Positions 40,021 to 61,127 of a stretch of DNA of 64,000 nucleotides are shown piece by piece (the first letter of the stretch is position 1; every line of letters begins with the position of its first letter). Made by a program: the position numbers and the translations under genes. This stretch comes from an uncultured Planctomycetaceae bacterium. Lineage in GTDB: Bacteria > Planctomycetota > Planctomycetia > Isosphaerales > Isosphaeraceae. The stretch spans positions 448,001 to 512,000 of the forward strand of contig CAWIAD010000002.1 of NCBI GenBank assembly GCA_963833985.1, given 5' to 3'. The notes beneath the pieces are model-generated. The model saw nothing but the letters and a program-made list of their open reading frames with translations, did not search any database and was not told the origin of the DNA.

Positions 40021-40089
40021 GGGCAGCCACCGAGGCCTTTCAGGCTATCAGCGCGGGCAAATGGCGGGCAAATGGGTCCAACCACTTTC

Positions 40090-41353
40090 CAGGGCCAATC
40101 ACAGTTAGGAGATGCCCAACTTGGTGAAGAGTTCGCCGACTCGGGCAGCGTTTCTCCTCATGGCCTCCGCGATATTGTTCGCTTGCCACGAGCGCAGCAA
40201 ACCGATGGCCAGGTTTCGGAACGCTGCCATGACCTCTGGCCCAGAGTTCTTGCGGATGCGGCTGGCATCCTCTCCCAGGGTCACGTCGCGTACGTAGTGA
40301 GACTTGTTTTCGATCGTCCAATGGCCTCGTGACCATTGAAGAAGCCGCTCAGCGCCGGCGACTGCACGCGGCACGCTCGTGATGAAATAGCGAGTCTCCG
40401 TCGTGCACTTGCCGTCGCGTTTGACAACCGACTCGATCCGACCCACCTGGCTGACACCCGGCCAGTCGAGGTAAGTATTCAGCGCGGTCGTGGCCGTCAG
40501 CGTGCGGCGCTCATGGCGGCCGTGCCCTTTGTCGATCGTCGTCGCCGTGTCCATCGCCTCAAGCCAGAGCCGGCGCTGCCGAGGGGGAAAAAGACCCGTC
40601 AGCCTGCGGGGCCATCGCCGCTTGGATGTCGGCCAGGAGCGTCGGCTGATTGTCTTTGACAACCCAGAGATAATGGCCACCGCTGTCTATGATTTGTCGA
40701 CTCAGGTCGCGCTGGCAGAACATGGCATCACCGGTGATCACGCGACCCTCCAGGACCAAGTCCAAGAGCAATTTGAGGGCGGCCTTATGCTCATTGGTCT
40801 TATCGACCCCGCCGCGCGGTACCTCGGCTTGGGCGACCGTCAGCCCTGACTCGTGCGCCACCAGCGAGAGTAGATGGACCGCCTTGCTCAGCCCATCGAA
40901 GCTGCCGCGTGCCGACTTGCCATCAAGGGCAAAAGCTTCAGGGGAACCCGTCTCGGCCGCCGGTAGTCGGCCCATCATGGCGTCGGCCCACCGAGTTAAG
41001 GCGGCCTCCAGCGCGGCTGGATCCAAGCTCATGAGCACCTTGCGGATCCCGCCGGACTTGGGAGGGCGCCGCGTGAAGCCAAGCCGGTGCATCAGCGCGA
41101 TGTCATGGTCCTGGGCCCATTGGGCGATCGCCGCATAGCTGCGGGCTCCGCACATGATGGCGCAACAGGTCAACGCCAGGATCGCTCTAAGCGGATGCTG
41201 GCGGCCATGACGGCTGCGAGGGTCCGGAATCTCGCCGAGGAAATGAAGCAAGCCTAGGAGTGGGGACGCGTCCATGCCATGGCCCTCGTTGGTGTCATCC
41301 TGAGCAACGAAGACTTAACTATCTACTCCAGGCTAAATCTGTCAATAGCCCTG
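40090..41353 (-). mobile_element. ISAs1 family insertion sequence
   Basis: Ends CAGGGCCAATCACAG / CTGTCAATAGCCCTG; 10-bp duplication AACCACTTTC (40080-40089, 41354-41363). Confidence 0.92.
40105..41275 (-). CDS. ISAs1 transposase in two frames joined at TTTTTCCCCC (~40585)
   Basis: IPDPR, ALDGKSARGS, DAMFCQ, VKDNQ; then KGHGRHERR, RGHWTIEN..HYVRDV. Confidence 0.9.
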
Positions 41354-41681
41354 AACCACTTTCTGGATCACGGTCGGCTCAATCGTCGCATTCAGCCTCT
41401 TATCCGTAGGGTTATGGCCGAAACGGGCGACTCGACGCAAGGGCGGAATGGATGGCAGAAGGGCCACCCATTGGCGGATAGCTCAGACTGTGGGTGGTCC
41501 GGTTTTATTTTTCTACAAACCTGGACTGGGCCGGTTCTCGGTGCGATTCGCGGTTGGAATCGTCGATGCGAATCCCGAGGATTCTGATACGCGTCCTGGT
41601 GAGCGCTGCTTTTGCTGGCCTGCTCGCGGCTGAGCCGTCCGCCTGCGGTAGGGCACCAGGGTGAGCGATCGCCGTTCCTCT

Positions 41682-42012
41682 TTATTCAAAAATCGGCGTC
41701 AGCTTTGCCAGTGCCTCATCGACGATCGCGTCCGGAGCCTGTTCCAGCTTCTTGCCCCCGCGCGCTCAGATCGAGCGCGCGGGGTTGGTCGCAGCGTATG
41801 ATGCCAATCGTTTTCGTCCCCGCGCCCTCCAGCTTCACCGCAAAACCTGCCGTCCGCGCGAAATTACCGCCGCTGGTGATCGGCAGCACAACGGGCACCT
41901 TCGTCACGCGGTTGAACGCCTCTGGCGACACGATCAGCACCGGTCGCCGCCCTCGCTGCTCGTGTCCCTGCGTGGGATCAAGCTCGACCAGCCAGATTTC
42001 GCCCCGCTTCAT
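41682..42012 (-). CDS. pemK: PemK/MazF toxin, apparent frameshift near 41760
   Basis: RGEIWLVELDPTQGHEQRGRRPVL...TSGGNFARTAGFAV...CDQPR; shifted frame gives KKLEQAPDAIVDEALAKL. Confidence 0.88.
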
Positions 42013-42269
42013 CAAATCAGCTCACTGCCGACAGGTCCGGTGTCGAGCCATTCGCGGTCTTCCTTGCCGCGCGGCGCCTTCGCGTTGCATTGGGCCAGGA
42101 GCTCGTCGAGCGTATAGTGCGGCCGCTCCTGAGGTTCGACGACCAGCCGCCCCCCTTGCACCGCCAGGCCTACCTTCGCTCCCGCCCGCAAGTGCAAGAT
42201 GTCGAGCAGTGCGGGCGGCACGGCCAGCATGATCGAGCCCCCGACCTTACGCAGATTTGTTATGTGCAT
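42012..42269 (-). CDS. pemI: PemI/MazE antitoxin
   Basis: MHITNLRKVGGSIMLAVPPALL...YTLDELLAQC...REWLD. Confidence 0.9.
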   Translation of the reverse strand: MHITNLRKVGGSIMLAVPPALLDILHLRAGAKVGLAVQGGRLVVEPQERPHYTLDELLAQCNAKAPRGKEDREWLDTGPVGSELI

Positions 42270-42284
42270 GACCCACTCCTGAAA

Positions 42285-42302
42285 GTTATACTCCAATATA
42301 AC
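42285..42302. promoter_or_regulatory. Putative PemIK operator
   Basis: Palindrome GTTATA-ctccaa-TATAAC just upstream of pemI. Confidence 0.65.
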
Positions 42303-42489: not shown

Positions 42490-42562
42490 GGCAAACGGCG
42501 GATGGCAGAAGGGCCACCCATTGACTGATATCTCGGACCGTGGGTGGCCCCGTCTTATTTCC
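42490..42562 (+). repeat. Repeat A copy 2 (short form)
   Basis: GATGGCAGAAGGGCCACCCA-ttgactgatatctcggaccg-TGGGTGGCCCC. Confidence 0.9.
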
Positions 42563-42663: not shown

Positions 42664-43798
42664 ATGTGCTCACTTCGGCACCTCGTGATGCTGGCCGCTG
42701 TGGTTACTTGCGGGATTGGCACCATTTTCTCCGTCGATCGGATTTACCGACCGATCGCGCGAATCGACCCGTCACCGGAGCCGACGCAGTTCGCCGGTTC
42801 GCCCCGAGAGTCGATTGTCCCCGTGGAGGCGCTCGTCGACGTTCGCAAAGCCGAGCAGAGCCGGCGAGCAGTACGGCCCGCCGGCGATCCAAAGCGGGAG
42901 GACGGCCTGAACTACGAGAGAGTGTTGAAGGGAGAGGAGGGCGGCACGTTGCTGCCCAAACCCGCCGAGCCCATGCCGCCGACCTACTGCCGTTCAATCG
43001 AAACGCGCCCCGAAACACACCAACGAGACGGCGGGACTGTACGGTGTCCACCGCAGCACTGTCCACTTATTCGAGAACAAGTCAGGTTTCGGGTTCACAC
43101 GAATGTTTTGGTTCACGAATGACCGCGGCGGTGAGGTCGCATCACGAGACATTGACCGTGTCGAACTGGTCAGCCTGCTGACCGACGACGAGCCTTCGGT
43201 GTACGTGCTCGACGAGATGGCGACGCCGGCGCTCGCCCGGCAAGCGAAACGCCGGCCGCTCGACGAGTTCGAGCGCCGCGGCCTCGACGCCGTGCGCCGC
43301 GGCGAGGAACTGGTGTGGACCCGGGAGGCTCCGACGCGGATGTTCGGCGCGATCTGCGCGAAGGCGCCTTGTCTACACTGTCACGCGAACGCCAAGGAGG
43401 GCGACCTGCTTGGCGCGTTCACGTACTATCTGAAGGTCCCAGTCGATCGGCTGAACATTCGCGAATTAGGCGGCGAACGTCTCCTCGAGCCCGACCCGGA
43501 AACGAAGCTCATCCGGGACCGGCTCGAAGACAAGCTCGACCTGAGATTCGAAAAGACATCATTGGAAGATGTGCTCGAGCTCATCAAATCCGCGACTCGC
43601 AGGGGCCCGAACAATCCCGGCATCCCGATCTATGTGGACCCCATGGGCCTCCTGGAGGCCGAGAAGACACTCGCGACGCCGGTCTCGTTTACCGCGAAGG
43701 GGGAGCCGTTGAAATCGTCGCTGGAGCGGCTGTTGAAATCGATGAGCCTGACCTATGCGGTCAAGGATGGGTTCCTGATGGTCACATCGCGAGACTGA
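42664..43798 (+). CDS. Exported protein with CxxCH heme motif and C-terminal STN-like domain; apparent frameshift ~43000
   Basis: N-terminal hydrophobic segment; GFGFTRM, CLHCH..GDLLGAFTY, F..TSLEDVLE.I....GIPIYVDP. Confidence 0.6.
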
Positions 43799-43824
43799 AC
43801 CGGGACCGTCACTGGGATGCCATG

Positions 43825-44079
43825 GGCGGCAAATGGGACAGGCGGCAAATCGGAAAATGGCGGCAAATGGGCCACTCGCATGGCGGCAAATGGGGCCACC
43901 CGCATTCTGGCTCACGGTCGGCTCAACCGTCGCATTCAGCGACATATTGGCAGCGCCACCGCCGAAATTGGCGACTCGACGCAAAGCCGAATGGATGGTA
44001 GAAGGGCCACCCATTGGATGGCAGAAGGGCCACCCATTGGCTGATATCTCAGACTGTGGGTGGCCCCATTTTCTTTTCC
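43825..44079 (+). repeat. Repeat A copy 3 (long form, stuttered)
   Basis: Four GGCGGCAAAT starts, duplicated GATGG.AGAAGGGCCACCCATTGG, end GTGGGTGGCCCC. Confidence 0.92.
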
Positions 44080-44101
44080 TTACTGAGCTGAGCGGCGTCT
44101 G

Positions 44102-44740
44102 TCAGGCGCCGTGCATCGAGGCCAGGCCAGGCCTCTCCGCAACCTTTCCCCTGCGGCCGAGGACGACACGGGCGGCGAGGAGTGCACCTCCGAGTCCCAG
44201 GCCCAGCAGGATCCCGCTGGGGGGTTCGGGGACGGTGGAGAAATAGACGCCCGTCGCGGAGGTCTGGGTCATCATGATGACCCCGCCGCTGGTGGTGATC
44301 GGCCCCGTGTCGAAGGCCGAGACCGTGGCGACCGTCGGCGGTGTCACATCGGGCAGAAGATAGGTCGAGAAGGCAGGCGCCGTGAGGTCGATCAGGTCGG
44401 TCTGCGTCGTGACGTCGCGGAGACCGATCGTCGAGAGCGAGGGCGTCTGGAACAGGACGAGAGTGTCCGTGATCGAGGCGTTCAGCACGCCAGCAATCGA
44501 CAGGTTGGGGTCCGTGATCTTCATCGAGTAGACCTTGGCCCCGAATTCCTCCGTGATCGTGGGAGTCTGGGTCGGATCATAATTGAACGTGAGCTCAGTC
44601 AAGGCATTCTCAAACGTTCCCGGATCCAGCTTCGTGCCCCAGGAGTAATAACTGAACCCGGCGTGTATGCCGGCCAGGCAAGGTGCGGACCACACCAGCC
44701 AGATCAGCATCGACGAGATGAGCATTCGCTTCATCTTCAA
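44102..44740 (-). CDS. PEP-CTERM-type exported protein
   Basis: Signal peptide; C-terminal VPEP + TM + Arg cluster. Confidence 0.8.
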   Translation of the reverse strand: MKMKRMLISSMLIWLVWSAPCLAGIHAGFSYYSWGTKLDPGTFENALTELTFNYDPTQTPTITEEFGAKVYSMKITDPNLSIAGVLNASITDTLVLFQTPSLSTIGLRDVTTQTDLIDLTAPAFSTYLLPDVTPPTVATVSAFDTGPITTSGGVIMMTQTSATGVYFSTVPEPPSGILLGLGLGGALLAARVVLGRRGKVAERPGLASMHGA

Positions 44741-45034: not shown

Positions 45035-45223
45035 GGCAAATGGGCAAATGGTGGGCAAATGGGGCTACCCACCTTCTGGCTCACGGTCGGCTCGATCGTT
45101 GCATTCAGCGACTTATCGGCAGTATCATCGCCGAAACTGGCGACATGACGCAAAGCGGAACGGATGGCAGAAAGGCCGCCCATTGGCTGATAGCTTGGAC
45201 TGTGGGTGGCCCCGTTTTGTTTC
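45035..45223 (+). repeat. Repeat A copy 4
   Basis: GGCAAATGG x3, GGGGCTACCCAC...GTGGGTGGCCCCGTTTTGTTT. Confidence 0.92.
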
Positions 45224-45328: not shown

Positions 45329-46477
45329 ATGGCCGGACCGGTGCGAAAGAGGTTCGTGCTCAGCCTTCGGAGCGCGATGCTTCTCGTCCTCTTAAGCGGG
45401 ATGTGGATGGGCTGGAGAGTCAATCGTGCGAACGATCAACGGTGGGCCGTGACCGCGATCCTGCGGGCTCGCGGCAGCATCAGCTACGATTATCAGTTCT
45501 CGGTATCGAGGGGTTATCGTCGTCTGAGTGCACGGCCTTCGGCCCCGGCCTGGCTCCGGAAGTGGCTGGGCGATGAATTTTTCCAGGAGGTAACCTCGGT
45601 CCAGTTTATCAACCGGCCTGTGACGGACCTCGACTTGGCCCCGCTCGCGAGTCTCGACCGCCTTGAGGAGTTCCACATCTCGGGAGCCCCGATCACGGAC
45701 GCCGGGCTGAAGCACCTCGCGAATTTGAAAGCGCTACGCATCCTCTCGCTCTGGGAGACACCCGGTATTACCGACGCCGGCCTCGCATACCTGAGTTCCC
45801 TGACGAATCTGCAACACTTGAACCTCTACCGTTGCGAAATAACCGACGCCGGTTTGGTCCACCTCCGCACGATGGACAACCTCGAGACGCTCGACCTCGC
45901 CAAGACCGGGGTCACGGGCCCCGGCTTATCGCAACTGGGTCGAATGTCCAAGCTCAAGAAGTTATTTACGCCCACGAACAGCGCCGGCTTGACGCACATC
46001 GGCCGCCTGCACGGGCTTCAAGAACTTTGTGCGTATCAACCCCGAAAGCCGATCCCGGGCGACGGCCTGGCGCACCTGGCCAACCTGAAGAGTTTGAGGG
46101 TCCTGCAACTGGGAGACAATCTCTGCTCCGACACCGGGCTGGCCACGCTTTCAGGACTGAGCGGCCTGACTCAACTGGGTATCGGCGGAGAACAGGTGAC
46201 CGACGCCGGGATGAACCATCTCGCCAAACTCAAAGGGCTCCAGGAACTGACCGTAGACGAATCGAGAGTCACCGGCGCTGGATTGGCGGTCCTTCTGGAC
46301 CTGCCAAGCCTGACATCCCTGGATCTCCAGGACTCCGCGGGGGTGGGAGACAGCGGGGTCGAGCCGCTCAGAAAAATGACCGGCCTTCAAATCCTCGGGC
46401 TCGTCGGCACGACGGTGAGCGACGACGGGATGACGGTGATTCGCCAGGCCCTGCCGATGGCCAGGGTAGTTCGCTGA
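45329..46477 (+). CDS. Leucine-rich repeat protein
   Basis: Repeated ITDAGL.HL..L..L..L.L units; RFVLSLRS leader plus TM. Confidence 0.92.
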   Translation: MAGPVRKRFVLSLRSAMLLVLLSGMWMGWRVNRANDQRWAVTAILRARGSISYDYQFSVSRGYRRLSARPSAPAWLRKWLGDEFFQEVTSVQFINRPVTDLDLAPLASLDRLEEFHISGAPITDAGLKHLANLKALRILSLWETPGITDAGLAYLSSLTNLQHLNLYRCEITDAGLVHLRTMDNLETLDLAKTGVTGPGLSQLGRMSKLKKLFTPTNSAGLTHIGRLHGLQELCAYQPRKPIPGDGLAHLANLKSLRVLQLGDNLCSDTGLATLSGLSGLTQLGIGGEQVTDAGMNHLAKLKGLQELTVDESRVTGAGLAVLLDLPSLTSLDLQDSAGVGDSGVEPLRKMTGLQILGLVGTTVSDDGMTVIRQALPMARVVR

Positions 46478-46673
46478 GCCGGAGCCGATGCAGTGGGAAA
46501 GCCCATGAGTTTGAAGCGGACGTTTTCAGAGGCGAGCGAGGACAGATGAATCGAGGTCTGGACGCGCTCATAACTTTATCCATCCTGCGCAGTTTGCTCG
46601 CGATCGGAAGGATGTCCCCTTCAGCTTCGTCCATGAGCACGCGGGGGCGGAGCCGGGTGCCTTGATCTCCAGG

Positions 46674-47126
46674 CTAATGGACTCCATAGAGGGGCACGCC
46701 AACCGCCTGGGCGGCGGCTTTCAGCTTTTCATCAAGGGTTGCCAGCGGTAGACCTCGCCGCATGGCCAATTCCAGGTAGGCGGCGTCATAAGCCGAAAGA
46801 TGGTGCTCGCGGGCAACGCTCAACGTATTCCCGAACGCATGGACCTTGGTTTCGTCATCGACGGTGATGGGCAGCAAGGATAGAAAGCCAAGCCAAGTGA
46901 CCGTATTGGTCTGGGTTGAGCGCTTGCGGCGTTCTCCGACCAGCAGGGTGTTGGCCACCTCAAGATGCCAGAGATCGGGCACAAAAGCCTGCTCCGAAGC
47001 CAGTGCGTCAAGTGCGCTCTGCGAGTATTGGTCCTGTTCGTCGGGGAAGCACCACGCTATGGAAACCGAACTGTCGATCACCAGCCCTTCCTTGGCCGGC
47101 GTGACGGCACTTCTCTTCCGACTCAA
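46674..47126 (-). CDS. VapC/PIN toxin
   Basis: VIDSSV..AW.FPDE, LEVANTL, LSAYDAAYLELA, LATLD. Confidence 0.9.
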   Translation of the reverse strand: MSRKRSAVTPAKEGLVIDSSVSIAWCFPDEQDQYSQSALDALASEQAFVPDLWHLEVANTLLVGERRKRSTQTNTVTWLGFLSLLPITVDDETKVHAFGNTLSVAREHHLSAYDAAYLELAMRRGLPLATLDEKLKAAAQAVGVPLYGVH

Positions 47127-47377
47127 GGCCGTCCCTCCTCAATCATCTCCTTGATTTCGCGGGCGGTCAGAGGACCGTGCTTGCGGGCATGCTTTTGGCT
47201 GTAGGCCCGGAACTCAGCGATTACGGCGGAAATGTCCTGCTTGGCTACCGCCTGGGCAGGAGACAGGATCGCGATGGGCTTGCCGCGTTTGGTGATCGTG
47301 ATCGTTTCGCCCTTCTCGACCTGGCTGAGAAGCCGGGGCAGGTGTGTCTTGGCTTCGTAGCTGCCGACGGATTTCAT
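47123..47377 (-). CDS. Phd/YefM antitoxin
   Basis: VGSYEAKTHLPRLL..VEKGETITITKRGKPIA. Confidence 0.9.
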   Translation of the reverse strand: MKSVGSYEAKTHLPRLLSQVEKGETITITKRGKPIAILSPAQAVAKQDISAVIAEFRAYSQKHARKHGPLTAREIKEMIEEGRP

Positions 47378-47607
47378 TTTGTACCCTCAATGCATGAACT
47401 GGTCTAATTCACCTAGTCTAACCAACTTTACCGATCTTGCCAAGTAGGCTTTTTGTCCGGTTGGGCCCGAGCATTCCACCGAATCAACATAAAGAGGATC
47501 AGGCAACCATCCGCCCGGACAAAGAGAGTACATGCAATGCAATGCAATCCATCAGACACATCGCCGGGCCCCCGGTCCGCCAGTCCCGGCGCTCGGCGCG
47601 TATGGCA

Positions 47608-47674
47608 CATGGCCACGTGCGTGAGCACGTGGTTTTCACGGGCGCAGCCCCCAACCTCGGGCGTGAGCCCGACC
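47608..47674 (-). repeat. Repeat B (inverted copy)
   Basis: Reverse complement of GGTCGGGCTCACGCCCGAGG...GTGAAAACCACGTGCTCACGCACGTGGCCATG. Confidence 0.9.
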
Positions 47675-47690
47675 AGAACCCGGCTGCCAG

Positions 47691-48217
47691 GCCTACGATC
47701 TGACTGATCTGAACCCGGTGGCCGCGGGCATCGCCGAGGTGCACGAGTCGAGTGCCCACACGTCGATCAAGGAATGGGTCGAGCACGTCCGGGACCAGGG
47801 TCGAGCCGAGGATCTGAAGGCTGCCGAAGCCGGCAGCGTGGCAGGGTCGCAGGCAGCGGAGGGGCTCGAAGAGGGTCTGTGGCTGTGCCGATCGAGGACC
47901 GCAGGAGGCTGGACCCGGACGCGGGTCGCGGTCGCGAGGGGATGGTCGAAGGGTTCTCGCTGGGCAGCTATCTGCTGCTGGTGGACTACACGGGGCAGCT
48001 GTATCGCGAGGGGAAGGCGGCGATCTCGGCGGAGCTGGCCGGGATCCTGGAGCGGCTGGGGAGCAATGCCGAGAGCTGGCAAGCGCGGCTGCTGAAGCTG
48101 GCCGGCGGCCGGCTGCTGGGGCGGTTCTTCGCGGCGAGCCGGGAGCGGCTGCGGGACGTGGCGGGGCGGCTGGGGCGGCATCACCTGGCGAACCTGGGCG
48201 GGTGCGCGGTGCGGTGA
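47691..48217 (+). pseudogene. 3' fragment of Y1/HUH RAYT-like transposase
   Basis: AY..DLNPVAAGIAE...HTSIKE, YLLLVDYTG...GKA.I...ILERLG; 1-nt frameshift near 47888 relative to the 62504-62983 copy. Confidence 0.75.
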
Positions 48218-48261
48218 GGTGACGACGACGTCGGCGTGGGAATACGCGTGATCTGGCGATG

Positions 48262-48400
48262 TGCAGGTCGGGCGCACGCCCGAGGTTGGAGGCTGCGCCC
48301 GTGAAAACCACGTGCTGACGCACGTGGCCATGCGCCGCAGACTCCCAGGACGCTGACACACGTGGCCATAGGCCGCAGACTCCCAGGACGCTCACGCACG
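48262..48400 (+). repeat. Repeat B plus two short GCCGCAGACTCCCAGGACGCT units
   Basis: Matches the 63017-63462 array. Confidence 0.9.
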
Positions 48401-48593
48401 GGGTCATCCGGCCGGACTGCGGGGCGCTCGGGCACCACAGTGTGCTCGGGCATTGCGGGGCGCTCGGATCCGGTCATCCGGCCTGGACTGGGGACTGCTC
48501 GGGACCGTAGCCGTCCCCCACGGGTACCCAGTCGCTCGCGCACTGCGGGACGTTCGCGCACGCGGCTGCGCGCTCTGTACCGGTCGGAGCGAC

Positions 48594-50435
48594 GAATGGC
48601 ACTAGCTTAAGGACAAGTGAAGGCAGGTCCCCTGGTGAAATTGCGGATGAGTAACCTGGCTGAATCTTGCCAGGTATAATGGAAGTGGGAGGTACTTCCC
48701 GCTCGAGTGAGTTGCTGTTTGGACTAGGCTCCACGGCAGCGATTCCTGGGCCGCACCATTTCCATTCGAGACATAGGAGACCTCCCATGATCACCCTGCA
48801 GGAGGTTCGCGCTCGCTTTGCGCACGACCATGGACTGCCTTTCGCCGGCTCCTTGAGCGAACAGAACATCCTCAACGCTCTCAATGAGCATGGCATCAAG
48901 TATCGAGACCGAGTGTTCACCCCCGTCACCACCATCTGGGGCTTTCTCTCCCAGGTGCTCAACGACGACCAAAGCTGCAGCAACGCAGTTTCGCACATTA
49001 TTGCCCACCGGGCGGCCAGCGGGCTGGGAACGTGTTCACCAAACACGGCCAGCTACTGCAACGCCCGGGGCCGCATCGTCACCGACGTCCTGCGCACCCT
49101 GGCACGGCGGACCGCCGAGGAGTTACAGACCGCAGCCGAGGAGCAGTGGAAGTGGATCGGGCGGAATGTATTCATCGTCGACGGGTCGGGCATCTGGATG
49201 CCTGACACGCCGGAGAACCGCGAGGTGTACCCGCAGCCGGTGGTCCAGCAGCCGGGGATTGGTTTTCCCCTGGCCCGAGTCACCGTACTCCTCTCGCTGG
49301 CGACCGGCGCTTGCCACGACCTGGCCATCGCCCCGTACGCGGGCAAGGGGACTGGCGAGACCACACTGCTGCGGCGGATGTACGAGTCGCTTTCCCCTGG
49401 CGACGTGGTTCTGGCGGACGCTCTGTTCGACAACTACTTCCTCGCATGCGAATTGCGGTGGCTCGGCGTCGAGCTGGTCGCCCGTGTACAGGCGGAGCGC
49501 GTTGGGAGCCGGACGGTGGAGAGCCGGCCCGACGGCGACGTCATCCTCTGGCGAAGGCCTAACAAGCCGCGCGGGATGACAGGGGAGGAGTATCGCCGCT
49601 ACCCGAAGACCCTGCTGATGCGGCAGGTGGCCGTCGATGCCCGCGACAAGGACAACCGAGCCGAGCGCTTCAAGGTCGTCACCACGATCCTCGACGCGTC
49701 GATCGACGGCGGACAACTCGGCGACCTGTATGAGCGGAGGTGGGATGGAGAGATCGATATAAGATCGATCAAATCGGTGATGCAGATGGAGTTCCTGCGG
49801 TGCAAGACGCCGGAGATGGTGCACAAGGAGATCTGGGCCCATCTGTTGGCGTACAACCTGCTCCGCACGGCGATGGCGGTGGCCGCCGGGGCGAACGGGA
49901 TCGAGCCCCGGCAGGTGAGCTTCAAGGGGGCCAAGCAGGCGGTGACGGCGTTCGCTCCGAAGATCGAAGCGGCCCGGCCGAAGGATCGCCCCGCGCTGAT
50001 CGACGCGATGCTGGCGGTGATCGCTTACCACCGCGTCGGCAACCGTCCGGGACGATGGGAGCCGCGGGCGACGAAACGACGGCCGAGGCATGGGGCTCGC
50101 CTGAACCAGACCCGAGCCGAGGCCAAACTGGCGCACAATCGCGCGAAATGGTACTAGCAAGCGGTGAGGTTGTGGGACATTCCCTTTGGCTGAAAGCGGG
50201 CCGCGCCGCAAGGGCGTGTGGCGGGAGCGGCACCGCGCTGACCGGTTAAGCGCACGACCGAAGGAGGCCATCTGCGAGGTGAGGCACCTGCCCAGGTACC
50301 GGCAAGGGGCTCAAGAACGAGTCTCTGTCAATCGCTGGCGCCTGACGGCGGCTGTGCACGGCAAGTAGCCGTATACCTTGTCCGCCCCGCACGGCGTTTC
50401 TGACAGGCCGCTACGGCCTTAAGCTAGTGCCATTC
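48594..50435 (+). mobile_element. IS4 family insertion sequence
   Basis: Perfect 19-bp TIR GAATGGCACTAGCTTAAGG; 11-bp duplication GTCGGAGCGAC (48583-48593, 50436-50446). Confidence 0.95.
48787..50157 (+). CDS. IS4 DDE transposase
   Basis: IVDGS..MPDT, LADA, Y..RW..E..IR.IK (YREK-like) motif; AGGAGA RBS. Confidence 0.93.
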   Translation: MITLQEVRARFAHDHGLPFAGSLSEQNILNALNEHGIKYRDRVFTPVTTIWGFLSQVLNDDQSCSNAVSHIIAHRAASGLGTCSPNTASYCNARGRIVTDVLRTLARRTAEELQTAAEEQWKWIGRNVFIVDGSGIWMPDTPENREVYPQPVVQQPGIGFPLARVTVLLSLATGACHDLAIAPYAGKGTGETTLLRRMYESLSPGDVVLADALFDNYFLACELRWLGVELVARVQAERVGSRTVESRPDGDVILWRRPNKPRGMTGEEYRRYPKTLLMRQVAVDARDKDNRAERFKVVTTILDASIDGGQLGDLYERRWDGEIDIRSIKSVMQMEFLRCKTPEMVHKEIWAHLLAYNLLRTAMAVAAGANGIEPRQVSFKGAKQAVTAFAPKIEAARPKDRPALIDAMLAVIAYHRVGNRPGRWEPRATKRRPRHGARLNQTRAEAKLAHNRAKWY

Positions 50436-52103: not shown

Positions 52104-52345
52104 GACAACCCTCATGGCACGGCACTCGTAGAGTCGAGGTGTGGCGCGGTTGCTTGGATCGAGGTTCGAATTCCCTCATACCCCCTCCTTCGTCTGCGGA
52201 CGCGCGGATGGGAAGCGGATGAGTGCCAGCCACTTTCTCGTAGCCCTCATGGCATTGCCGCGGGGAGCGGATCCAAGGCGAGAGTGGAGACCTTTCCCCG
52301 GAAGCAACAACCGTGCGTGAGAGACGGGCGCCGGCTACTCCGCCT

Positions 52346-52515
52346 GGCAAATGGGGCCACCCACCTTCTGGCTCACGGTCGGCTCAATCGTCGCATTCAG
52401 CATCTAATCGGCAGCATCATCGCCGAAACTGGCGACATGACGCAAAGCGGAACGGATGGCAGAAGGGCCGCCCATTGGCTGATATCTTGGACTGTGGGTG
52501 GCCCCGTTTTGTTTC
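52346..52515 (+). repeat. Repeat A copy 6
   Basis: Closest to copy 4. Confidence 0.92.
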
Positions 52516-52620
52516 TAATCCTGGATCGATACAATTCGGCCTGGGGCGCTCATACGCAGACTGATACTTCAGCCACGCGCGGGCTACCGCAGTTGCCAGG
52601 TCTTGATGAGGCTCTGACTC

Positions 52621-52674
52621 ATGGCCGGACCGGTGCGAAAGAGGTTCGTGCTCAGCCTTCGGAGCGCGATGCTT
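52621..52674 (+). pseudogene. Truncated duplicate of the LRR gene 5' end
   Basis: Identical to 45329-45382, cut by IS3. Confidence 0.9.
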
Positions 52675-54269
52675 TGTCTTGCTTCAGCCGGAAATGGAGA
52701 GACGTCGCACCCGAGTTATACTACAACTCGGCAGGAGTCTCACCATGCGAAAGCCCCGCAAGAACTATACGCCTGTCGAGAAGGTCGCCATCCTCCGGCG
52801 CCACCTCATCGATCGCGTCGCCGTTTCCGATCTCTGCGACGAGCACCAGCTGTCGCCCACGTTGTTCTACCTCTGGCAGAAGCAGTTCTTCGAGGGGGGC
52901 ACGGCGGCCTTCCAGCGCAAGAACGGACCCTCTGAGAGCCAGCACCTTCGCACCATCGCAGCCCTCCGCGACAAGCTCCAGCGCAAGAATGAAGTCGTCG
53001 CCGAGCTCATGGAGGAACACATCCAGCTAAAAAAAGAGCTTGGGGAGCTCTGACCAAGGCATGGGTTCCCCACGATACCCGCGACGGCATCGTTGACTTC
53101 GTCAGGCGCTGGTCGCAGCGAACCGAGATCCCCGTCGCCAGGTTCATCACCTGGCTGGGGATCGCAGCCAGCAAGTTCCAGAACTGGAAGACTGGCTATG
53201 GACTGGCCAACGAGCACAATGCCTTGGTTCCACGCGACTGGTGGCTGGAGCCGTGGGAAAAGCGAGCCATCATCGAGTTCCACAAGGACCATCCCGTCGA
53301 CGGCTACCGGCGACTGGCGTTCATGATGCTCGACGGCGATGTCGTCGCGGTCAGCCCTTCCAGCGTCTATCGCGTGCTCCGTGATGCGTGGTTGGTAAAG
53401 CATCATAACAGCAAACCTTCACTCAAAGGCAAAGGCTTCCAGCAGCCACTTTTGCCCCACGAGCACTGGCACGTGGACATGTCGCACATCAACGTCGCCG
53501 GCACGTTCTACTCGCTTTGCAGCCTGCTCGACGGCTGCAGCCGGTTCATCGTCCACTGGGAGATCCGCGCGAGCATGACCGAGGCTGAAGTCGAGACGAT
53601 CATCCAGCGCGCACGCGAGCGATACCCTGACGCCCGCCCGCGGATCATCTCTGACAACGGGCCCCAGTTCATCGCCAGGGATTTCAAGGAGTTCATTCGG
53701 ATTTGCGGTATGACACATGTGAGAACATCGCCATATTATCCGCAAAGCAACGGCAAGATCGAGCGCTGGCACCGCTCGCTGAAATCCGAGTGCATCCGGC
53801 CCGGCGTGCCGCTGTCGCTGGAGGATGCCCGTCGTCTCGTGGAACGTTATGTTGATCACTACAATCAAGTGCGTCTTCATTCTGCGATCGGTTACATCGC
53901 CCCGGCCGACAAGCTGGCCGGCCGTGGTCCAGCGATCTTCGCCGACCGCGACCGTAAGCTGGAGACTGCCCGTGAAAGGAGGGAACAGGTGCGTGCGACG
54001 ACCCGAGCGACGGGTTGATCACAGGGAGGCAATTGTCTCGTTCAGCTCGGGGCGGCTACGATGAGAGATGGCCTGGGCGGAGGGTAGGGCAACGTGGCGA
54101 CACGACCTGAGCGCCGACCCAGGGACCAAGACAGAAGGGGGCGGCACGATGCCGCCCTGTCTTCTCCTTCGGGATTGGTAAGAAAGCGGAAAACCGGTCC
54201 ATCTGTGTGAGTGTTCACTCCACCTTATCTTTCGACCCCGGTTTCTCCATTTCACGCTGAACCATTACA
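52675..54269 (+). mobile_element. IS3 family insertion sequence
   Basis: TG...CA ends TGTCTTGCTTCAGCCGGAAATGGAGA / TCTCCATTTCACGCTGAACCATTACA; no target duplication. Confidence 0.9.
52744..54018 (+). CDS. IS3 OrfAB transposase, -1 frameshift at A7G (53029-53036)
   Basis: OrfA HTH 52744-53053; OrfB WHVD, ISDNGPQF, YPQSNGKIER. Confidence 0.92.
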
Positions 54270-54602: not shown

Positions 54603-56531
54603 TCAGGCCCCGGCGCCAGAGGACCTCAGCAACGGCACGATGTCGTGATGCCCGCGCTTCGTGGCCCACGCCAGAGGGGTTGCCCACGGTTCCGCATCCG
54701 CCTCCACGGGGTCCGCGCCGCGTTCCAGGTACAGTCGGACAAGCTCGACGCGTCCCCAGCGGCAGGCCCAGCCGAGCGGCGTCGAGTGGAGCAGCGAATC
54801 GCGTATCGTCAGCGACGCGCCAGCGTCGAGAAGCATCGCCGCGCGCTTGCAGTGCTCATTCTCGGGAGGCGCGAATGCCCCGCTGCGCCCCGCGACCGGC
54901 GTGGTCAGGTGATGGAGCATCGTGTAGCCGCCTTCGAAGGGTATATCGACATCGACTCCGTGATCGAGAACGAGCTTCAAACCCTCGGGCAGCCTGGCGG
55001 TCATGAGCACGCCATTCCACCACGGATCGTCGCGCTTTCGCGTGAGATGCGGCAGACACATCCGTATGAATTCCGGTTCACCGCCGCAGAGGAACTCGGC
55101 TGCTTGTTTGGCTGTTAAGGGCTCAGTGCCATCCAGACAGTACGCGGTCACGGCGCCGTCGAGAATCGCTCGAGCGATTTCCGGGTCCGCCACACTCTCG
55201 ACCGTGAGCCGCGCTCCGTGCTTGCGCAAGAGCGCCTTCATCTTCTCGTCTTCGGCTCTGCCCATCGAATCGCCACACGCGCAGACGACCGCATCGACGT
55301 CCGCGCCGCGTGTCAGCAGCAACTCGGCGATTTCGTGCCGGCCGCACATGGACGCGAACCAAAGAGGCATGCCGGAGCTTTCTCCGCCATCGAACTCATT
55401 GGGATCGAGACCGAGGTCGAGCAGCGTGGCGACCATGTCGAGCCGGTTCACGCGCACGGCGATCCCGAGCAAGCCTCCGCGGAAGATGTGGATCTCGTTC
55501 GGGAGCTGGCCTTCGCGATGCATCCGCAACGCAGCCTCGCGGTCGCCGAGGGCCACGGCTGCGCGGGGCGTGAACTCGGCCCCCTTCTCGAGCAGAAGGC
55601 GCGCCGTCTCGTAGAACCGCGCCGGATCGACATGCACGTTCTCCATGAAATAGAAAAACGAGGCGATTCCCTCCGGCGCCCAGCCGGCAACGATGGCCGC
55701 GAAATCGAGCGGTGTTTTGCCGCTTTTCGGCAGATCATCGCATCGTGGATCCGAGCGCGACGCGAGGGCGGCGGGCGAGGCGCCACGGTCGAGAAGCCAG
55801 CCCACAAGCGTGGGAGCGTGCTTCCAGGCCGCCAGATGCAGCGGCGTGATCCCATCAACGTCGCAAGCACCGATGAGCGCCGGGTCGGCTTCCATCAAGG
55901 CGATGGCCTCCGCGGCGCGGCCTTTGAAAATGGCCTGCCGCAGCGCATCGAACGCGTTGAGGGTGGATGCTGCCTCCTGGTTTGTTCGAGCGTGGCGATT
56001 TTCTTCCTCGCGCTCGATGGCCGCGACGATCTCGCTGTACTCGCGGTCGACGGCGATGGCATATGCCGAGGTCACGTCCCGGTGCGGCCAGACGCCAACG
56101 CGTGCGTCCGCCCCGAGCTGCATCAAGACACGGGTCAGCTCCTCATCGCGGCTCAGCACGGCGCGCCGCAGCGAGCTGTCGCGCAAACTGGTGTGTTGGT
56201 TGATCACGTCGGGACGGGTTTTGGCGAGCCGCCGCACAGCCGCCACATCACCGGCTTCGGCAACCGCGAGGAGTGCCGCGAAGTTCACGCCCTCTACGTG
56301 ATTCTTCAGCCCGGGCCAACTCGAAAAGCCGTAAGCTCGCGCCAGGACTCGCTGCGCGTCGGCCAAAGCGAAATTCGCTGGATCGCGACTCCCTTCGAAT
56401 CGCTCGATTTCGGCGACGGCTGCCTCCTCGCCGGCTCGACACGCCTCGAGCAGTTCCTTGGCCTGCTTGCGGAGCTGGGCGAGACTCGGCTCGTCCGGGA
56501 GAGTACGCGTGGACGGAGGCTGAGAAGACAT
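54603..56531 (-). CDS. Ankyrin repeat protein
   Basis: LPDEPSLAQLRKQAKELL N-terminus; GITPLHLAA, TPLGWA, TPLAWA repeats; AAGGAGG RBS. Confidence 0.9.
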   Translation of the reverse strand: MSSQPPSTRTLPDEPSLAQLRKQAKELLEACRAGEEAAVAEIERFEGSRDPANFALADAQRVLARAYGFSSWPGLKNHVEGVNFAALLAVAEAGDVAAVRRLAKTRPDVINQHTSLRDSSLRRAVLSRDEELTRVLMQLGADARVGVWPHRDVTSAYAIAVDREYSEIVAAIEREEENRHARTNQEAASTLNAFDALRQAIFKGRAAEAIALMEADPALIGACDVDGITPLHLAAWKHAPTLVGWLLDRGASPAALASRSDPRCDDLPKSGKTPLDFAAIVAGWAPEGIASFFYFMENVHVDPARFYETARLLLEKGAEFTPRAAVALGDREAALRMHREGQLPNEIHIFRGGLLGIAVRVNRLDMVATLLDLGLDPNEFDGGESSGMPLWFASMCGRHEIAELLLTRGADVDAVVCACGDSMGRAEDEKMKALLRKHGARLTVESVADPEIARAILDGAVTAYCLDGTEPLTAKQAAEFLCGGEPEFIRMCLPHLTRKRDDPWWNGVLMTARLPEGLKLVLDHGVDVDIPFEGGYTMLHHLTTPVAGRSGAFAPPENEHCKRAAMLLDAGASLTIRDSLLHSTPLGWACRWGRVELVRLYLERGADPVEADAEPWATPLAWATKRGHHDIVPLLRSSGAGA

Positions 56532-56783
56532 GATGTCCTCCTTTATGCGGCGATTGGCCGCATGGCTCGGTGTCCGCGTCGCGAGCCGAAAGAAGGTACG
56601 TTGGCAATCAATGGCAATGCATGAGTCAGGTGGGCTCAGCCCTTTCCGCGGACACAGTAGCGTCCTGAACGCTAGCGTCCAGTTTACCAGGGACGGTGCT
56701 CCCGACAAGCGTGACGTACGGGAAAGCCGAATGAGCCGGCTGCGGCTGTCTCGTGGTCGTCGCTTTCGGAGTCGCGCGGCCCC

Positions 56784-57160
56784 GGGGGCAAATGGGGCCA
56801 CCCACCTTCTGGCTCGGGGTGGCAAATGGGGCCACCCACCTTCTGGCTCACGGGCGGCTCGATCGTCGCATCCAGCGACTTATTGGCAGCGTCACCGCCG
56901 GAATTGGCCACTCGACGCAAACTGGAACGGATGGCAGAAGGGTCACCCATCGTCTGATATCTCAGACTGTGGGTGGCCCCGTTTTGTTCGCGGATGTGGC
57001 GGCGTGGTGGCCGGATGAAGAGGTCGTGCGGCGCCGTGGGAGACTCTTTCCGCCACGCGACAGGGCGCGGCGGGCACTGCCGGTCTCGGAGGCTTGTGGA
57101 TGCCAGAGGAGCCAACCATTGGCTGATATCTCAGACTGTGGGCGGCCCCGTTTTGTTTCC
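56784..57160 (+). repeat. Repeat A copy 7 (56784-56989) and short copy 8 (57099-57160) enclosing a RAYT internal fragment (56991-57097)
   Basis: Fragment DVAAWWPDEEVVRR.GRLFPPRD matches 60905-61010. Confidence 0.88.
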
Positions 57161-57296: not shown

Positions 57297-58001
57297 TCAA
57301 GCAGCCGACACATTCCGGCGCCAGGCGTAGGCGCCGACAAGCCCGAGCAGACCGATGCCGAGTAGAGCGATGGACGAAGGCTCCGGGATTGGTCCCTGCG
57401 CGTTGCCAAACGTAACCGGCAGAACAAAACTTCCGCCGTAATAGGGTGGGCCGCCCGGACCAGGGCCAAAGGCGATCGTTCCCGTGAGCGCCCCTGGGCC
57501 ATGGAACGTACCAATGGAGTAATTAAAAGCGGAAAAATTCGTCGGTGCCAGCGTCGGGGGCGGAAACAACACAGGCGCTTTCACGGGGTTCACGTAAGGG
57601 ATGATGGGGCTGAAGGAAGAGGAATGAGTCGCGCCGACGATGCTCGCTTCGCCCCCCTGGCCAGCCGGTGGAGGGACGAACGTCCCTGAGAGAGAAATGT
57701 ACTCATATCCAAGCCCTTGGTAATTGTTGTAACCATTCTGAGCAACCAGATCCCCAGTCCCCGTGGATGTCCCGGTGATGGTAATCGAGTCGCTGAATTG
57801 CGTCACGGATTCCGTTGCGGTACCCGTAAAGAACCCATCGCCGTTCTCGAGGGGAAGGGCCGTAACCTGGATGACACCGTTGACCGCTTGAACCCCGTTC
57901 AGCGTGAACGGTATGGAGCCGGCCATCGCCGCTGACATTCCCCCGCACGTCGCCAGAATGACCAGTCCTGCCCTGGCGATCTCATAGGCTTGTGAGCACA
58001 T
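57297..58001 (-). CDS. PEP-CTERM exported protein
   Basis: IPEPSSIALLGIGLLGL...WRR tail; signal peptide; AAGGAG RBS. Confidence 0.85.
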   Translation of the reverse strand: MCSQAYEIARAGLVILATCGGMSAAMAGSIPFTLNGVQAVNGVIQVTALPLENGDGFFTGTATESVTQFSDSITITGTSTGTGDLVAQNGYNNYQGLGYEYISLSGTFVPPPAGQGGEASIVGATHSSSFSPIIPYVNPVKAPVLFPPPTLAPTNFSAFNYSIGTFHGPGALTGTIAFGPGPGGPPYYGGSFVLPVTFGNAQGPIPEPSSIALLGIGLLGLVGAYAWRRNVSAA

Positions 58002-58683
58002 TTCCATCTCCTTCGCGGTTTGCAGCGTAGTTGTTGAAATGTACCGACAATTCTTGCCGACCAACGATTCGAATGAACCGTTCTCGCAAGCAGGCCTGAT
58101 GTGACGGCCAGCGTTCTGGCCGCGAGGACCCGCTGACCGTTAGTTAAGCTCGGTCGAATCACAATGTCAACGGAAAAAGAGTCAATTGCAAAAAAATCGT
58201 GTGGGAACGGCGTAATTGCAAAACTGAACATCTCTGTGTATGCAGTGATCATAAAAAGACCGGCAATGCATTCTTGACCTGGGCGGTGGGATTCGGGTGG
58301 CTTGTGCGGACCTTGCTGGGAGGTCTGCTGATGACAAATGCCCGTGCGCATCTGGTGGATCCGACCGTGACCCGCTGGTATCACTGCATCACGCGGTGCG
58401 TGCGGCGGGCGTTCCTGCTGGGGGAGGGAGGGCTCGACCGTAAAGAACGGATCGAACGGCGGTTGCAGGAACCCGCGGAGATCTTGTCCGTGGCCGTGGG
58501 CGGGTGTCAGGCGACACTAAAACTGCCCCCCCTGACGACACTAAAACTGACCCCCTCCTATACACATGACGAGGAGGGGCTATGGACAAGTTGGGATCCG
58601 ATTTGGTCAACCTGCACAGTATGCAGGCGGACCAATCGGACGGAACGAGTGTCCACCTGCGAACCACGCAGGAGGATACCAGG

Positions 58684-59922
58684 ATGCTGCAACCGGGGGT
58701 CGTGGATCGGATCCACGAACTGTCCGGCCAAGGTTTCGGGAGCAAACGGATTGCTCGTGAGTTGGGGATCTCCCGTAACTCGGTCCGCCGTTATCTCGCT
58801 GGAGCCACGGTCGGCTTTCAAGAACGTCCCGCGGCGCGTCGTCTCGACGACGGCACGCTTCGCGAAGTGCACGATCTCTACGGTACTCTTGCCGAGGGAA
58901 ACGCCGTCGTCATTCAACAGGAGCTGGCCAGTCGGGGCATCCACGTCGAGTTGCGAACCTTGCAACGAGCCGTCGTTCCTCTGAGACAGGAACAGCGCGC
59001 TGAGGCTCTGGCCACAGTCCGGTTCGAGACCCCGCCGGGTCAACAAATGCAAATCGATTTTGGTGAGAAGACCGTGCGGATCGCAGGTCAGCCCGTGAAG
59101 GTGCACTTGATGACCGCGGTCCTGGGATACTCGCGCCGGATCTATTGCCGGGCATTTCTCGCCGAACGGCAGGATGATTGGCTCGAGGGAATCGACGGGG
59201 CATTCCGACATTTTGGCGGTCTCACAGAACAGATCCTCTGTGACAACGCGTCACCCTTGGTCGTCTCCCACGACCGCCAGTCCGGTGAGGTCGTGTGGAA
59301 TCCAGGCTTCGAGGCCTTCTGCCGCGATCGTGGAGTTCTTGCCAAGGCGTGCCGTCCCCGCCGCGCGCGAACCAAAGGCAAGATCGAACGGGGCGTCGGC
59401 TACGTCAAGCATAATGCCCTGGCCGGTCGTTCATTCGTTTCCTTCGCTGAGCTGGAACGACACCTGGCAAGGTGGCAGGTTGACGTCGCCGACCAGCGGA
59501 TTCATGGCACCACCAAGGAGCGTCCGGCTGTGCGCTTCGAGCGCGATGAACGAGAGGCTCTGGGGCCTCTGCCCACACGCCCTTTGCCGACGCGGACTCG
59601 TCGGTTGAAGCGTCGCGTGAGCACAGATTGCTTCGTTGATATCGATACAATTCGATATAGCGTGCCCTATCAGCATGTTCGAGAGACCGTCGAAGTGGTC
59701 GTCAAGGAGGAAGACGTCGAGATCTGGTTGCGTGGGACCTGCATCGCCAAACACATGCGGAGCCGCGAGCCCCGCGCCTGGGTTCGCAATCCGATGCACT
59801 TCGAGGGACTGTTCCGCCGCATGAGCGGAGCACAGGCTTTGCCTCCTCCCACGCCGAGCGATAACTCCGGAACCCGCCCGTTGTCAATCTATGCCGAACT
59901 GGTGGAAGGAGGCCGCCTGTGA
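58684..59922 (+). CDS. istA: IS21 transposase
   Basis: HTH; RFETPPGQQMQIDFG, LGYSR, CDN, TKGKIER. Confidence 0.95.
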   Translation: MLQPGVVDRIHELSGQGFGSKRIARELGISRNSVRRYLAGATVGFQERPAARRLDDGTLREVHDLYGTLAEGNAVVIQQELASRGIHVELRTLQRAVVPLRQEQRAEALATVRFETPPGQQMQIDFGEKTVRIAGQPVKVHLMTAVLGYSRRIYCRAFLAERQDDWLEGIDGAFRHFGGLTEQILCDNASPLVVSHDRQSGEVVWNPGFEAFCRDRGVLAKACRPRRARTKGKIERGVGYVKHNALAGRSFVSFAELERHLARWQVDVADQRIHGTTKERPAVRFERDEREALGPLPTRPLPTRTRRLKRRVSTDCFVDIDTIRYSVPYQHVRETVEVVVKEEDVEIWLRGTCIAKHMRSREPRAWVRNPMHFEGLFRRMSGAQALPPPTPSDNSGTRPLSIYAELVEGGRL

Positions 59923-60785
59923 ACCTCCTTGTTGACCCTGATGACCCGCAAGAGGAGCGGATCCTCGCGGCGCTGAAGCGGCTCCAGTTGACTCACCTGC
60001 GTGAGTCTCTCCCCGCAGTTCTGTCCGAGGCGGCCAAGGGGAGCTGGACCTACCTGGAGTTCCTCGATCAGATCCTGCGGCGCGAGATGGACGCCAAGCA
60101 GGGCAAGCGGATCCGGATGGGGATGCAGATCGCCCACTTCCCCTGTGTCCGGACCATCGAGGCGTTTGATTTCGCGTTCCAACCGTCCGTCGACGAGCGG
60201 TTGATCCGGGAGCTGTCGACCGGCAATTTCATCGCTCATGGTGAGAACGTGTTGATATTCGGACCTCCTGGAGTAGGAAAGTCTCATCTGGCCATCGGCC
60301 TCGGCCGAAAAATCGTGGAGCAGGGTCACACGGTTCGATTCACGACGGCCACAGCGCTTTTAGCGGCCCTGGCGAAAGCCGAGACGGAAGGAGGGCTCTC
60401 TGAGAAATTGACCGAGTTCTGCAAGCCTCGCTTGTTGATCATCGACGAACTGGGCTACCTGCCCTTCGAGCGTCGGGCAGCGCACCTGTTCTTCCAGTTG
60501 GTCAACCGCCGATACGAGAAAGGGAGCCTGCTGGTCACGACGAACCAGCGGGTTTCCGAATGGGGAATCGTCTTCGGAGACGAAGTGCTGGCGACGGCAA
60601 TCTTGGATCGGTTACTCCATCACAGCCACACACTTTTGATCACGGGAGAAAGTTATCGTCTGCGGGAGAAGCGTAAGAGCGGATTGATCCGATCGCGGTT
60701 GGCGAACGCCGACCCGGAGAAGCCCCACCTGGGGCCGGAGGTGACGATCGAAAAGGGACACGAGAAGGCCAGCAAGAACCGATAA
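59919..60785 (+). CDS. istB: IS21 helper ATPase
   Basis: GPPGVGKS, IIDELGYLP, AILDRLLHH, GESYR. Confidence 0.96.
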   Translation: MNLLVDPDDPQEERILAALKRLQLTHLRESLPAVLSEAAKGSWTYLEFLDQILRREMDAKQGKRIRMGMQIAHFPCVRTIEAFDFAFQPSVDERLIRELSTGNFIAHGENVLIFGPPGVGKSHLAIGLGRKIVEQGHTVRFTTATALLAALAKAETEGGLSEKLTEFCKPRLLIIDELGYLPFERRAAHLFFQLVNRRYEKGSLLVTTNQRVSEWGIVFGDEVLATAILDRLLHHSHTLLITGESYRLREKRKSGLIRSRLANADPEKPHLGPEVTIEKGHEKASKNR

Positions 60786-61010
60786 CAAGGGAGCATGCTG
60801 GAAGTGGGGATCAGTACACGTCCGAGGGGGTCAGAATTAGTGTCGCCTGACAGCGGGTTCGCCATCCTCGATAACCACCTGCATCTGCTGGTGCGGCTCG
60901 ACCCGGATGTGGCGGCGGGGTGGTCGGATGAAGAGGTCGTGCGGCACTGGGAGAGGCTCTTCCCGCCCCGCGACAAGACGTGGCGGGCCCTGCCGGTGTC
61001 GGGGGCTTGG

Positions 61011-61127
61011 GGATGGCAAAAGGGCCAACCATAGGCTGATATCTCAGACTGTGGGTGGGCCTATTTTGTTTCCGTTACCGGACCTGCGATCCGACAGAAT
61101 GTGGGTGGCCCCATTGCTCCCCCTTTT
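61011..61127 (+). repeat. Repeat A short copy 9 (61011-61073) and right-end variant (61095-61127)
   Basis: GGATGGCAAAAGGGCCAACCA...GACTGTGGGTGGGCC; GTGGGTGGCCCCATT. Confidence 0.85.

Follow-up and report, generated by a model that had tools for sequence, protein, structure and literature searches.

Introduction

Among the described systems closest to the locus reported here, TIRtrons are Y1 transposase genes flanked by terminal inverted repeats (TIRs), and TIR families also form dimers and clusters (Di Nocera et al. 2013, PMC3733652). Y1 transposases of subclass 2.3 are long, multi-copy and common in Alteromonadales and, in the sections of the source covered here, have no recognised flanking structures resembling repetitive extragenic palindromes (REPs) (Quentin et al. 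2018, PMC6006769). The covered parts of this literature describe TIRYT-type and subclass 2.3 enzymes with neither an identified DNA structure nor a tested activity. Clusters of hairpin-forming REP doublets (REPINs) were described by Bertels and Rainey (PMC3116915), and bacterial interspersed mosaic elements (BIMEs) are recombined by TnpA-REP, which in vitro also cuts and recombines CT sites far from the REP (Ton-Hoang et al., PMC3333891). For insertion sequences (ISs), a review of the IS6 family sets out a translocatable-unit model (PMC7986276). Here we analyse repeat A, a hairpin repeat that recurs between small gene modules in a stretch of 64,000 nucleotides (the window; C2:448001-512000) from the genome of an uncultured Planctomycetaceae bacterium (G000; 10.16 Mb, two contigs, C1 and C2, 65% GC). 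The initial annotation had interpreted the region as an integron-like array of captured genes, with repeat A at its junctions and an HUH enzyme possibly acting in trans.

Results

Repeat A shares its ends with a family of Y1 transposase genes. The 12-mer at its end occurs 54 times in the genome, and two of these occurrences bound a 1.9-kb element whose single long open reading frame (ORF) belongs to a family of 455-aa proteins. The whole autonomous element has moved recently: its two copies, 99.2% identical over 1929 nt, occupy different sites with different flanks. The intact partner envisaged in the initial annotation exists in this form, as full-length Y1 elements bounded by A's end motif, outside the window. 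The 455-aa protein (C2:551448-552815) fell under the cut-offs of both NF047646 (E=4e-10) and Pfam Y1_Tnp, and a profile comparison (hhalign) of its family with Pfam-positive Y1 proteins gave a probability of 97.7. Residues H72, H74, Y216 and NP of the HUH and YxxxNP motifs were invariant in 20 out of 20 aligned relatives. These 20 were drawn from 79 relative loci, nearly all planctomycete and several per genome, which came from the best 80 of 103 confirmed. The AlphaFold model of the protein has a pLDDT of 45, and sequence searches of the PDB returned nothing relevant.

The end motif holds a fixed position around these genes. Of the 71 related genes with enough flank, 66 have it no more than 200 nt upstream; its inverted copy lies within 500 nt downstream in 32 out of 54, and both are present in 27 out of 47, compared with 7/580 and 0/164 control windows. 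In one congener (G013), the left end of the element and the first 54 codons of its gene are joined directly to A's arm. The window itself holds a remnant of the cognate element (32630..33016, minus strand; 84% identity by tblastn and 75% over 267 nt by blastn), which comprises residues 418-455 with the end motif and right terminus and is fused to the left end of a separate, 344-aa family of REP-associated tyrosine transposases (RAYTs). Given the shared end motif, its fixed position around the gene family and the G013 fusion, repeat A is, judged by its sequence, a non-autonomous, TIR-bounded miniature inverted-repeat transposable element (MITE) of this planctomycete Y1/HUH transposase family, of the TIRtron/TIRYT type. 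As in other MITEs, A is short, TIR-bounded and non-coding and has its termini in common with an autonomous element. The autonomous element at L040 has its right-end module in tandem copies (G000:C2:554600-555310), and a later IS insertion parts the module from the gene.

A sensitive blastn search of the whole genome, with three A copies as queries, found 14 repeat A loci. Nine of them lie at 41356-61075 in the window, every one on the plus strand, and the remaining five are scattered along C2 outside it. In a simulation with uniform placement, three of 14 copies in 20 kb already had P=0.004, and nine had about <1e-17. The clustering and co-orientation proposed at the outset are far beyond chance. 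Of the copies listed then, those at 40056 and 41354 are one copy split by an ISAs1 element, and that at 61095 is a right end alone. The first 40 kb indeed lack a full copy and contain just two one-mismatch matches to the motif, at 15243 and 32641. Both the long form (~170-210 bp between GGGGCCACCCAC and GTGGGTGGCCCC) and the short form (~60-70 bp) were recovered. The long form consists of the left end, ~100 non-coding bases and a short hairpin, which is also found alone; folded as single-stranded DNA, it gave z=-3.2 for the top strand and z=-1.2 for the bottom strand. Variable sites were spread evenly over the codon positions (16/17/17), indicating non-coding DNA. We ruled out a captured gene fragment as the interior of A, with codon bias absent and no longer ORF matched.

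All nine copies are on the plus strand. Copy 1 (long; 40056..41520) is the one split by ISAs1. It is followed by copy 2, of the short hairpin form (42491..42560), copy 3 (long; 43825..44080), with a stuttered left end and a duplicated inner end, and copy 4 (long; 45035..45223). The left end of copy 5 (long; 50832..51050) truncates the downstream flank of a 344-aa RAYT element. Copy 6 (52337..52674) carries a duplicate of the promoter and 5' end of a leucine-rich-repeat (LRR) gene (96.7% identity to 45054-45382) and is cut by an IS3 element. Copy 7 (long; 56786..56990) is followed by an internal RAYT fragment (codons ~75-109) fused to copy 8 (short; 56991..57160), and copy 9 (short; 61010..61122) ends in a single right end. 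The RAYT/A fusion point is identical in copies 8 and 9, an 85% duplicate, so that repeat and flank were duplicated as a unit here as well as in the case of A with the LRR start. The array copies are more similar to each other (80-99% identity) than to the distant long copies (67-74%). Repeat A has also moved as a unit: copies 5 and 7 are 99% identical, and their flanks differ on both sides.

A second MITE subfamily, A', has the same end motif and 15 copies genome-wide, and its right part lies at 51056..51235 (plus strand). It forms two three-copy co-oriented runs, at G000:C1:458559-461095 and C2:91814-95240 (L234 and L235), in which single genes or a vapBC pair separate the copies. Two of the C1 copies share ~60 nt of duplicated flank, the flank + A' unit being duplicated around the vapBC pair. 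Neighbours of the same subfamily within 6 kb are co-oriented in 13 out of 13 pairs, which are not independent of one another. One subfamily has thus proliferated locally in a single orientation. With a view to replication-strand bias, we found that GC skew is irregular and that an autonomous element 40 kb away is oriented opposite.

Stuttered ends, each made of the outer tag and a truncated motif start, numbered 63. Several assemblies show such stuttered tips, and so do several unrelated Y1 families at their ends (window 43825-43885 and 51040-51235; L040, L041, L059, L002 and L004). Frameshifts in several genes suggest read errors and contamination is put at 3.9%, so that the array could be an assembly artefact in which unrelated pieces were joined through collapsed repeats and the stutters were sequencing noise. 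We consider this very unlikely, since, in an assembly of two contigs, the copies are shorter than 210 bp and show 1-20% divergence, and the same stutters and clusters appear in other assemblies, both fragmented and near-complete.

Junctions for which an A-free relative or paralog exists were compared with it, using the furthest-reaching relative per junction and termini set by eye. Homology ended within 8 nt of an A terminus at 9 out of 12 independent junctions (1.7 expected), with misses of 15, 55 and 63 nt, a pattern that any inserted element would also yield. The initial annotation had proposed looking for breakpoints at the repeat ends, and this is where they usually fall. For example, the 148 nt upstream of the ankyrin gene described below match an A-free paralog on C1 as far as A's left end. 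The relative's continuation beyond A was not found in any of 11 tests (ten gave no match in the window and one only other repeats), and none of the 11 gave a clean empty site of A, the relatives being other species. Among 23 relative loci followed for up to 20 kb, no two modules were neighbours, bar one LRR at 43%. Together, the absent continuations and the absent neighbours indicate that A joins unrelated DNAs. The target had GG at the crossover in about 9 of 11 junctions scored by eye, against a GG frequency of 9%; this is suggestive only. We rejected GG-bounded stutters as proof of a GG cut site, because GG is the motif start in 41 of the 63 cases.

The modules between the copies were searched for in 120 other genomes of the family, and only two or three candidates were scored per genome, so that the match counts are lower bounds. 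Pfam and NCBIfam bore out the cargo annotation (PemK and MazE, LRR, PIN and Phd, Uma2, ankyrin and two PEP-CTERM proteins, one of which fell under the Pfam search threshold and had weak NCBIfam matches). A pemIK/mazEF toxin-antitoxin pair (41716..42269, minus strand) lies in an interval (41536-42491) that is 89% identical to a locus in a different genus (G035). A frameshifted CxxCH-containing gene (42664..43798, plus) is 85-92% identical to loci in G024, G025, G033, G040, G045, G046 and G070; it had no family match in Pfam or NCBIfam and no match in the ESM Atlas. CxxCH genes are tandem or multicopy in several other genera (L143, L145, L146, L203, L205 and L212). The LRR gene (45329..46477, plus) is 90-91% identical to loci in G010, G013 and G032, and the vapBC pair (PIN + Phd; 46674..47377, minus) has a paralog in its own genome (86%) and relatives in G064, G024 and G010 (83-88%). 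The Uma2 family gene (51489..52103, plus) lies in an interval (51298-52250) 92% identical to G013, and the ankyrin-repeat gene (54603..56532, minus) is 79-80% identical to G042 and G045. For the modules of the two PEP-CTERM proteins (44102..44740 and 57297..58064, both minus), a DNA match was absent in the 120 genomes. Matches in other genera were found for pemIK, CxxCH, LRR, vapBC and ankyrin, whereas the best Uma2 match (92%) was not in another genus. At the level of 85-92% identity, five modules have counterparts in other species, and for four of these the species belong to other genera. The left flank of the array was only 72-77% identical in congeners, and no congener kept it as a block. 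These comparisons support horizontal sharing of the cargo.

A-like sequence was found in 5 out of 13 congeners and in no other genus (six candidates scored per genome), and the end motif was dispersed in 12 of the 13 congeners, with up to 84 copies. In ten cargo-sharing genomes of other genera, the motif numbered 0-20, which is near the background of 0-8 given by the reversed control. Even scattering in the manner of an ordinary MITE, which the initial annotation had set against its own interpretation, does not describe A, with 9 of 14 copies clustered, but the same end family is dispersed here and in congeners. In relatives (29 loci in one comparison and 12 in another), A was never joined to the corresponding module at the corresponding junction, and ends of other TIR families were often nearby. 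In congeners, modules lie close to this family's end motif: vapBC at ~10 nt (G010), and Uma2 at ~20 nt and LRR at ~0.6 kb (G013). Co-oriented runs with small genes between copies, resembling the array, occur in G005 and G010. In L027 (G011) and L028 (G010), an A copy adjoins an orthologous aldo-keto reductase gene at an identical position, and the genes across from it differ. Pattern scans of metagenomes gave 0 matches in one case and in the other a single match, a solitary left arm in an unrelated context.

Apart from DDE IS transposases, the initial annotation had noted RAYT-like fragments as the only recombinase-type sequences. These fragments are not A's partner: they belong to the 344-aa family, which is separate from the 455-aa family and differs in its ends. 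These are asymmetric and without A's motif, the left one being stuttered and of GGACAGGCA type, whereas the right side has clusters of CACGTG-type REPs. It seems very unlikely that this family, and not the 455-aa one, mobilises A and built the array. It has 13 near full-length copies in the genome, 5 of the 14 A copies adjoin RAYT DNA (0.4% of the genome), and RAYT fragments point in the same direction as A both in the window and at C2 1.45 Mb, all of which favours it. Apart from its ends, what counts against it is that A behaves like an invading element, breaking RAYT DNA at several codons that are unrelated to one another. In the window, a 3' fragment (47550..48420, plus) is flanked on either side by REP-like repeats of its own (repeat B), and a left end with codons 1-109 (58250..61009, plus) is interrupted by IS21 (58505-60852, istA/istB). 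In a third copy (62252..63470, plus), codons ~20-186 are replaced by a GGACAGGCA-type mini-element, followed by repeat B. This mini-element, at 62387 and of a TIR kind different from A, takes the place of ~500 bp within the RAYT gene, which is a direct case of insertion with deletion.

We think it probable that the array arose in a Y1 hotspot, where MITEs proliferated locally, DNA was deleted and flanks were carried over. A Y1 enzyme supplied in trans would bind the end hairpin on single-stranded DNA, nick a few bases outside the motif and join the end to nearby sites of low specificity, apparently at GG. Repeated local events would insert A and delete or replace adjacent DNA. Stuttered ends would be restarts at the tip, flank would sometimes be carried along, and homologous recombination between co-oriented A copies would add duplications. 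The array would then be a scar in DNA where Y1 ends and horizontally acquired genes were abundant beforehand, and the modules would be pieces surviving between junctions, among which we propose that toxin-antitoxin pairs were favoured because their loss is harmful. Gene shuffling would be a by-product, with neither an attachment site nor a promoter dedicated to it and without cassettes being added in order.

Several observations weigh against this account. The resident elements and A have only the ~18-nt terminus in common, with different outer tags and an unmatched interior, and one of the two resident element copies is frameshifted. For both reasons, the proposal of an HUH enzyme acting in trans stands in part: the end motif ties A to an HUH/Y1 family, and we infer the action in trans. 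Moreover, the 23 relative loci showed no trace of a pre-existing island (bar the 43% LRR), and the concentration of 9 out of 14 copies, the 13 out of 13 co-oriented pairs and the mostly intact cargo fit module-by-module addition at least equally well.

Such addition would be expected of an IS26-like capture array, which is possible but which we rate as rather unlikely. An A end would join a site past a neighbouring gene, giving a circle of one A and its cargo, which Y1 strand exchange or RecA would then insert at an A already present; the array would thereby grow with all copies co-oriented. Co-orientation in 9/9 A and 4/4 A' neighbour pairs agrees with this, as do the duplicated units of A and flank (A with the LRR start, the RAYT fragment with short A, and flank with A' on C1) and the origin of the modules in separate places, at 85-92% identity across species against 72-77% for the left flank in congeners. 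So do the recurrence of small co-oriented clusters at C1 458-461 kb, C2 92-95 kb, G005 and G010 and the closeness of congener vapBC, Uma2 and LRR modules to this family's end motif. Against it, the relatives of the same modules and junctions (29 + 12 loci) are without A, other Y1 ends form junctions within intervals, 5 of the 14 A copies lie beside RAYT scrap instead of genes, and ten cargo-sharing genomes of other genera are near background in motif count. In a general form, TIRYT-type HUH enzymes and their MITEs could be an integrase-free capture system, in which single-stranded circles of MITE and gene insert at MITEs already in place. Arrays with all copies in one direction would result, and the toxin-antitoxin and surface-protein modules in them would be exchanged among soil planctomycetes; this proposal we regard as doubtful.

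No IntI above cut-off occurs in the genome: the best match to the integron integrase model TIGR02249 scored 184.6 bits against a cut-off of 265, on the other contig, and a pattern scan for the attC core (RYYYAAC...GTTRRRY) gave two weak-folding candidates, neither at A, so that the absence of both from the locus is as first noted. Integron arrays also hold ISAs1 elements and group II intron remnants. With these and a cargo that is standalone and rich in toxin-antitoxin pairs, the locus might be a cluster of attC sites lacking integrase (CALIN), degenerate and with its attC sites overwritten. This is extremely unlikely in view of the integrase score, the two weak attC candidates away from A, genes that face both directions with long native flanks and the lack of ISAs1 preference for A (1/4). 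The module genes are in mixed orientation, with native promoters or long native flanks and ragged ends; as relatives are also without A at the same junctions and their modules differ in how far they extend, the modules are not fixed-boundary cassettes. Of the proposed capture and shuffling junctions, then, the clustering, co-orientation, breakpoints and horizontal cargo stood, and cassettes of fixed boundary carrying a recombination site did not. A dedicated capture or shuffling system is possible.

Other mobile elements lie within the array. An ISAs1-family element (40090..41353, minus; Pfam DDE_Tnp_1_assoc) sits in repeat A copy 1 with a 10-bp target duplication. Its three further copies, 99.8-100% identical, occupy unrelated sites, and targeting of A by ISAs1 was ruled out, A being hit at 1 of 4 sites. 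The end of a different repeated element, with a GGGGACA-type terminus and eight genome matches, lies at the LRR/vapBC junction (46547..46630, no strand assigned). Y1 ends of other kinds form the LRR/vapBC junction, the one that follows vapBC and those behind the two right-hand modules. A DDE_Tnp_1 IS with terminal inverted repeats and an 11-bp target duplication lies at 48594..50435 (plus) and the IS3-family element at 52675..54268 (plus). A group II intron 5' remnant (61125..61295, minus; Rfam RF02005, E=2e-13) ends at the lone A end, and its paralogs begin at 61125; elsewhere, these paralogs are also truncated by TIR ends of other families. L021:1183-3331 holds what we take to be a tyrosine recombinase gene adjoining a plasmid RepA-like ORF.

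To the right of the array, a DUF2442 gene and a DhiT-like gene (61346..61871, minus; DhiT match weak, E=0.003) are probably a toxin-antitoxin pair. To its left are an additional Phd + PIN pair beside a transposase remnant (33324-33937) and a protein with five Big_3_5 domains (17478-19442), which accounts for a ~294-bp tandem repeat. Genome-wide, 7 out of 27 PIN genes have a Y1 end motif of some kind no more than 1 kb away, compared with 5% of random sites, so that the link between toxin-antitoxin genes and Y1 ends is not confined to the array. For Uma2 genes, 7 out of 61 lie near Y1 ends.

Discussion

We found no literature on such arrays, within limited coverage of subscription journals. The locus gives one TIRYT/2.3-type family an end motif conserved across Planctomycetes, a mobile full element, MITEs and a candidate cut site, which together make the enzyme directly testable. 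If the capture reading were true, HUH enzymes would have a system comparable to integrons and IS26 arrays.

By description (length, insertions and host range, as distinct from the authors' profiles), the 455-aa protein fits subclass 2.3. Like the members portrayed in the covered part of that study, it is long and multi-copy, with core insertions, YxxxNP and relatives in Alteromonadales; unlike them, its family has a conserved inverted end motif and MITEs (PMC6006769). The resemblance to TIRtrons and TIRYT, in what the covered sections describe, extends to a Y1 gene between TIRs at a fixed distance, to dispersed singles, dimers and clusters and to a G-rich tip. The motif here is GG(G/T)GCCACCCAC, with the tip GGGGCCAC, whereas the majority consensus of TIRtrons is GGGGWSAS; since other TIRs in the same paper are unrelated to GGGGWSAS, this mismatch is compatible with TIRtron membership (PMC3733652). 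The covered parts of that paper contain no analysis of cargo, junctions or co-orientation.

Repeat A shares with REP, REPIN and BIME-RAYT systems, in the portions of the reports drawn on here, non-coding hairpin doublets, a Y1 enzyme in trans, local amplification and cuts of low specificity (PMC3116915, PMC3333891). Its termini differ in having no GTAG, its copies are few, and its autonomous element is itself mobile (two recent copies). In addition, A copies lie at non-contiguous junctions with genes between them, whereas REPs and REPINs, in the sections covered, lie in conserved intergenic sites. Co-oriented copies, unrelated passenger segments between them and the absence of target duplications recall IS26 arrays as outlined in the covered part of the IS6 review; IS26, however, is an autonomous DDE element with demonstrated targeted integration (PMC7986276). 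Small accessory genes punctuated by repeats and including toxin-antitoxin pairs are also seen in integron arrays and CALINs, from which the A locus differs in having no IntI, attC, fixed crossover, common gene orientation or module-carried repeat. Thus, in the way it works the locus resembles an IS26 array or a REPIN cluster; in kind it is a TIRtron-type MITE cluster, not an integron.

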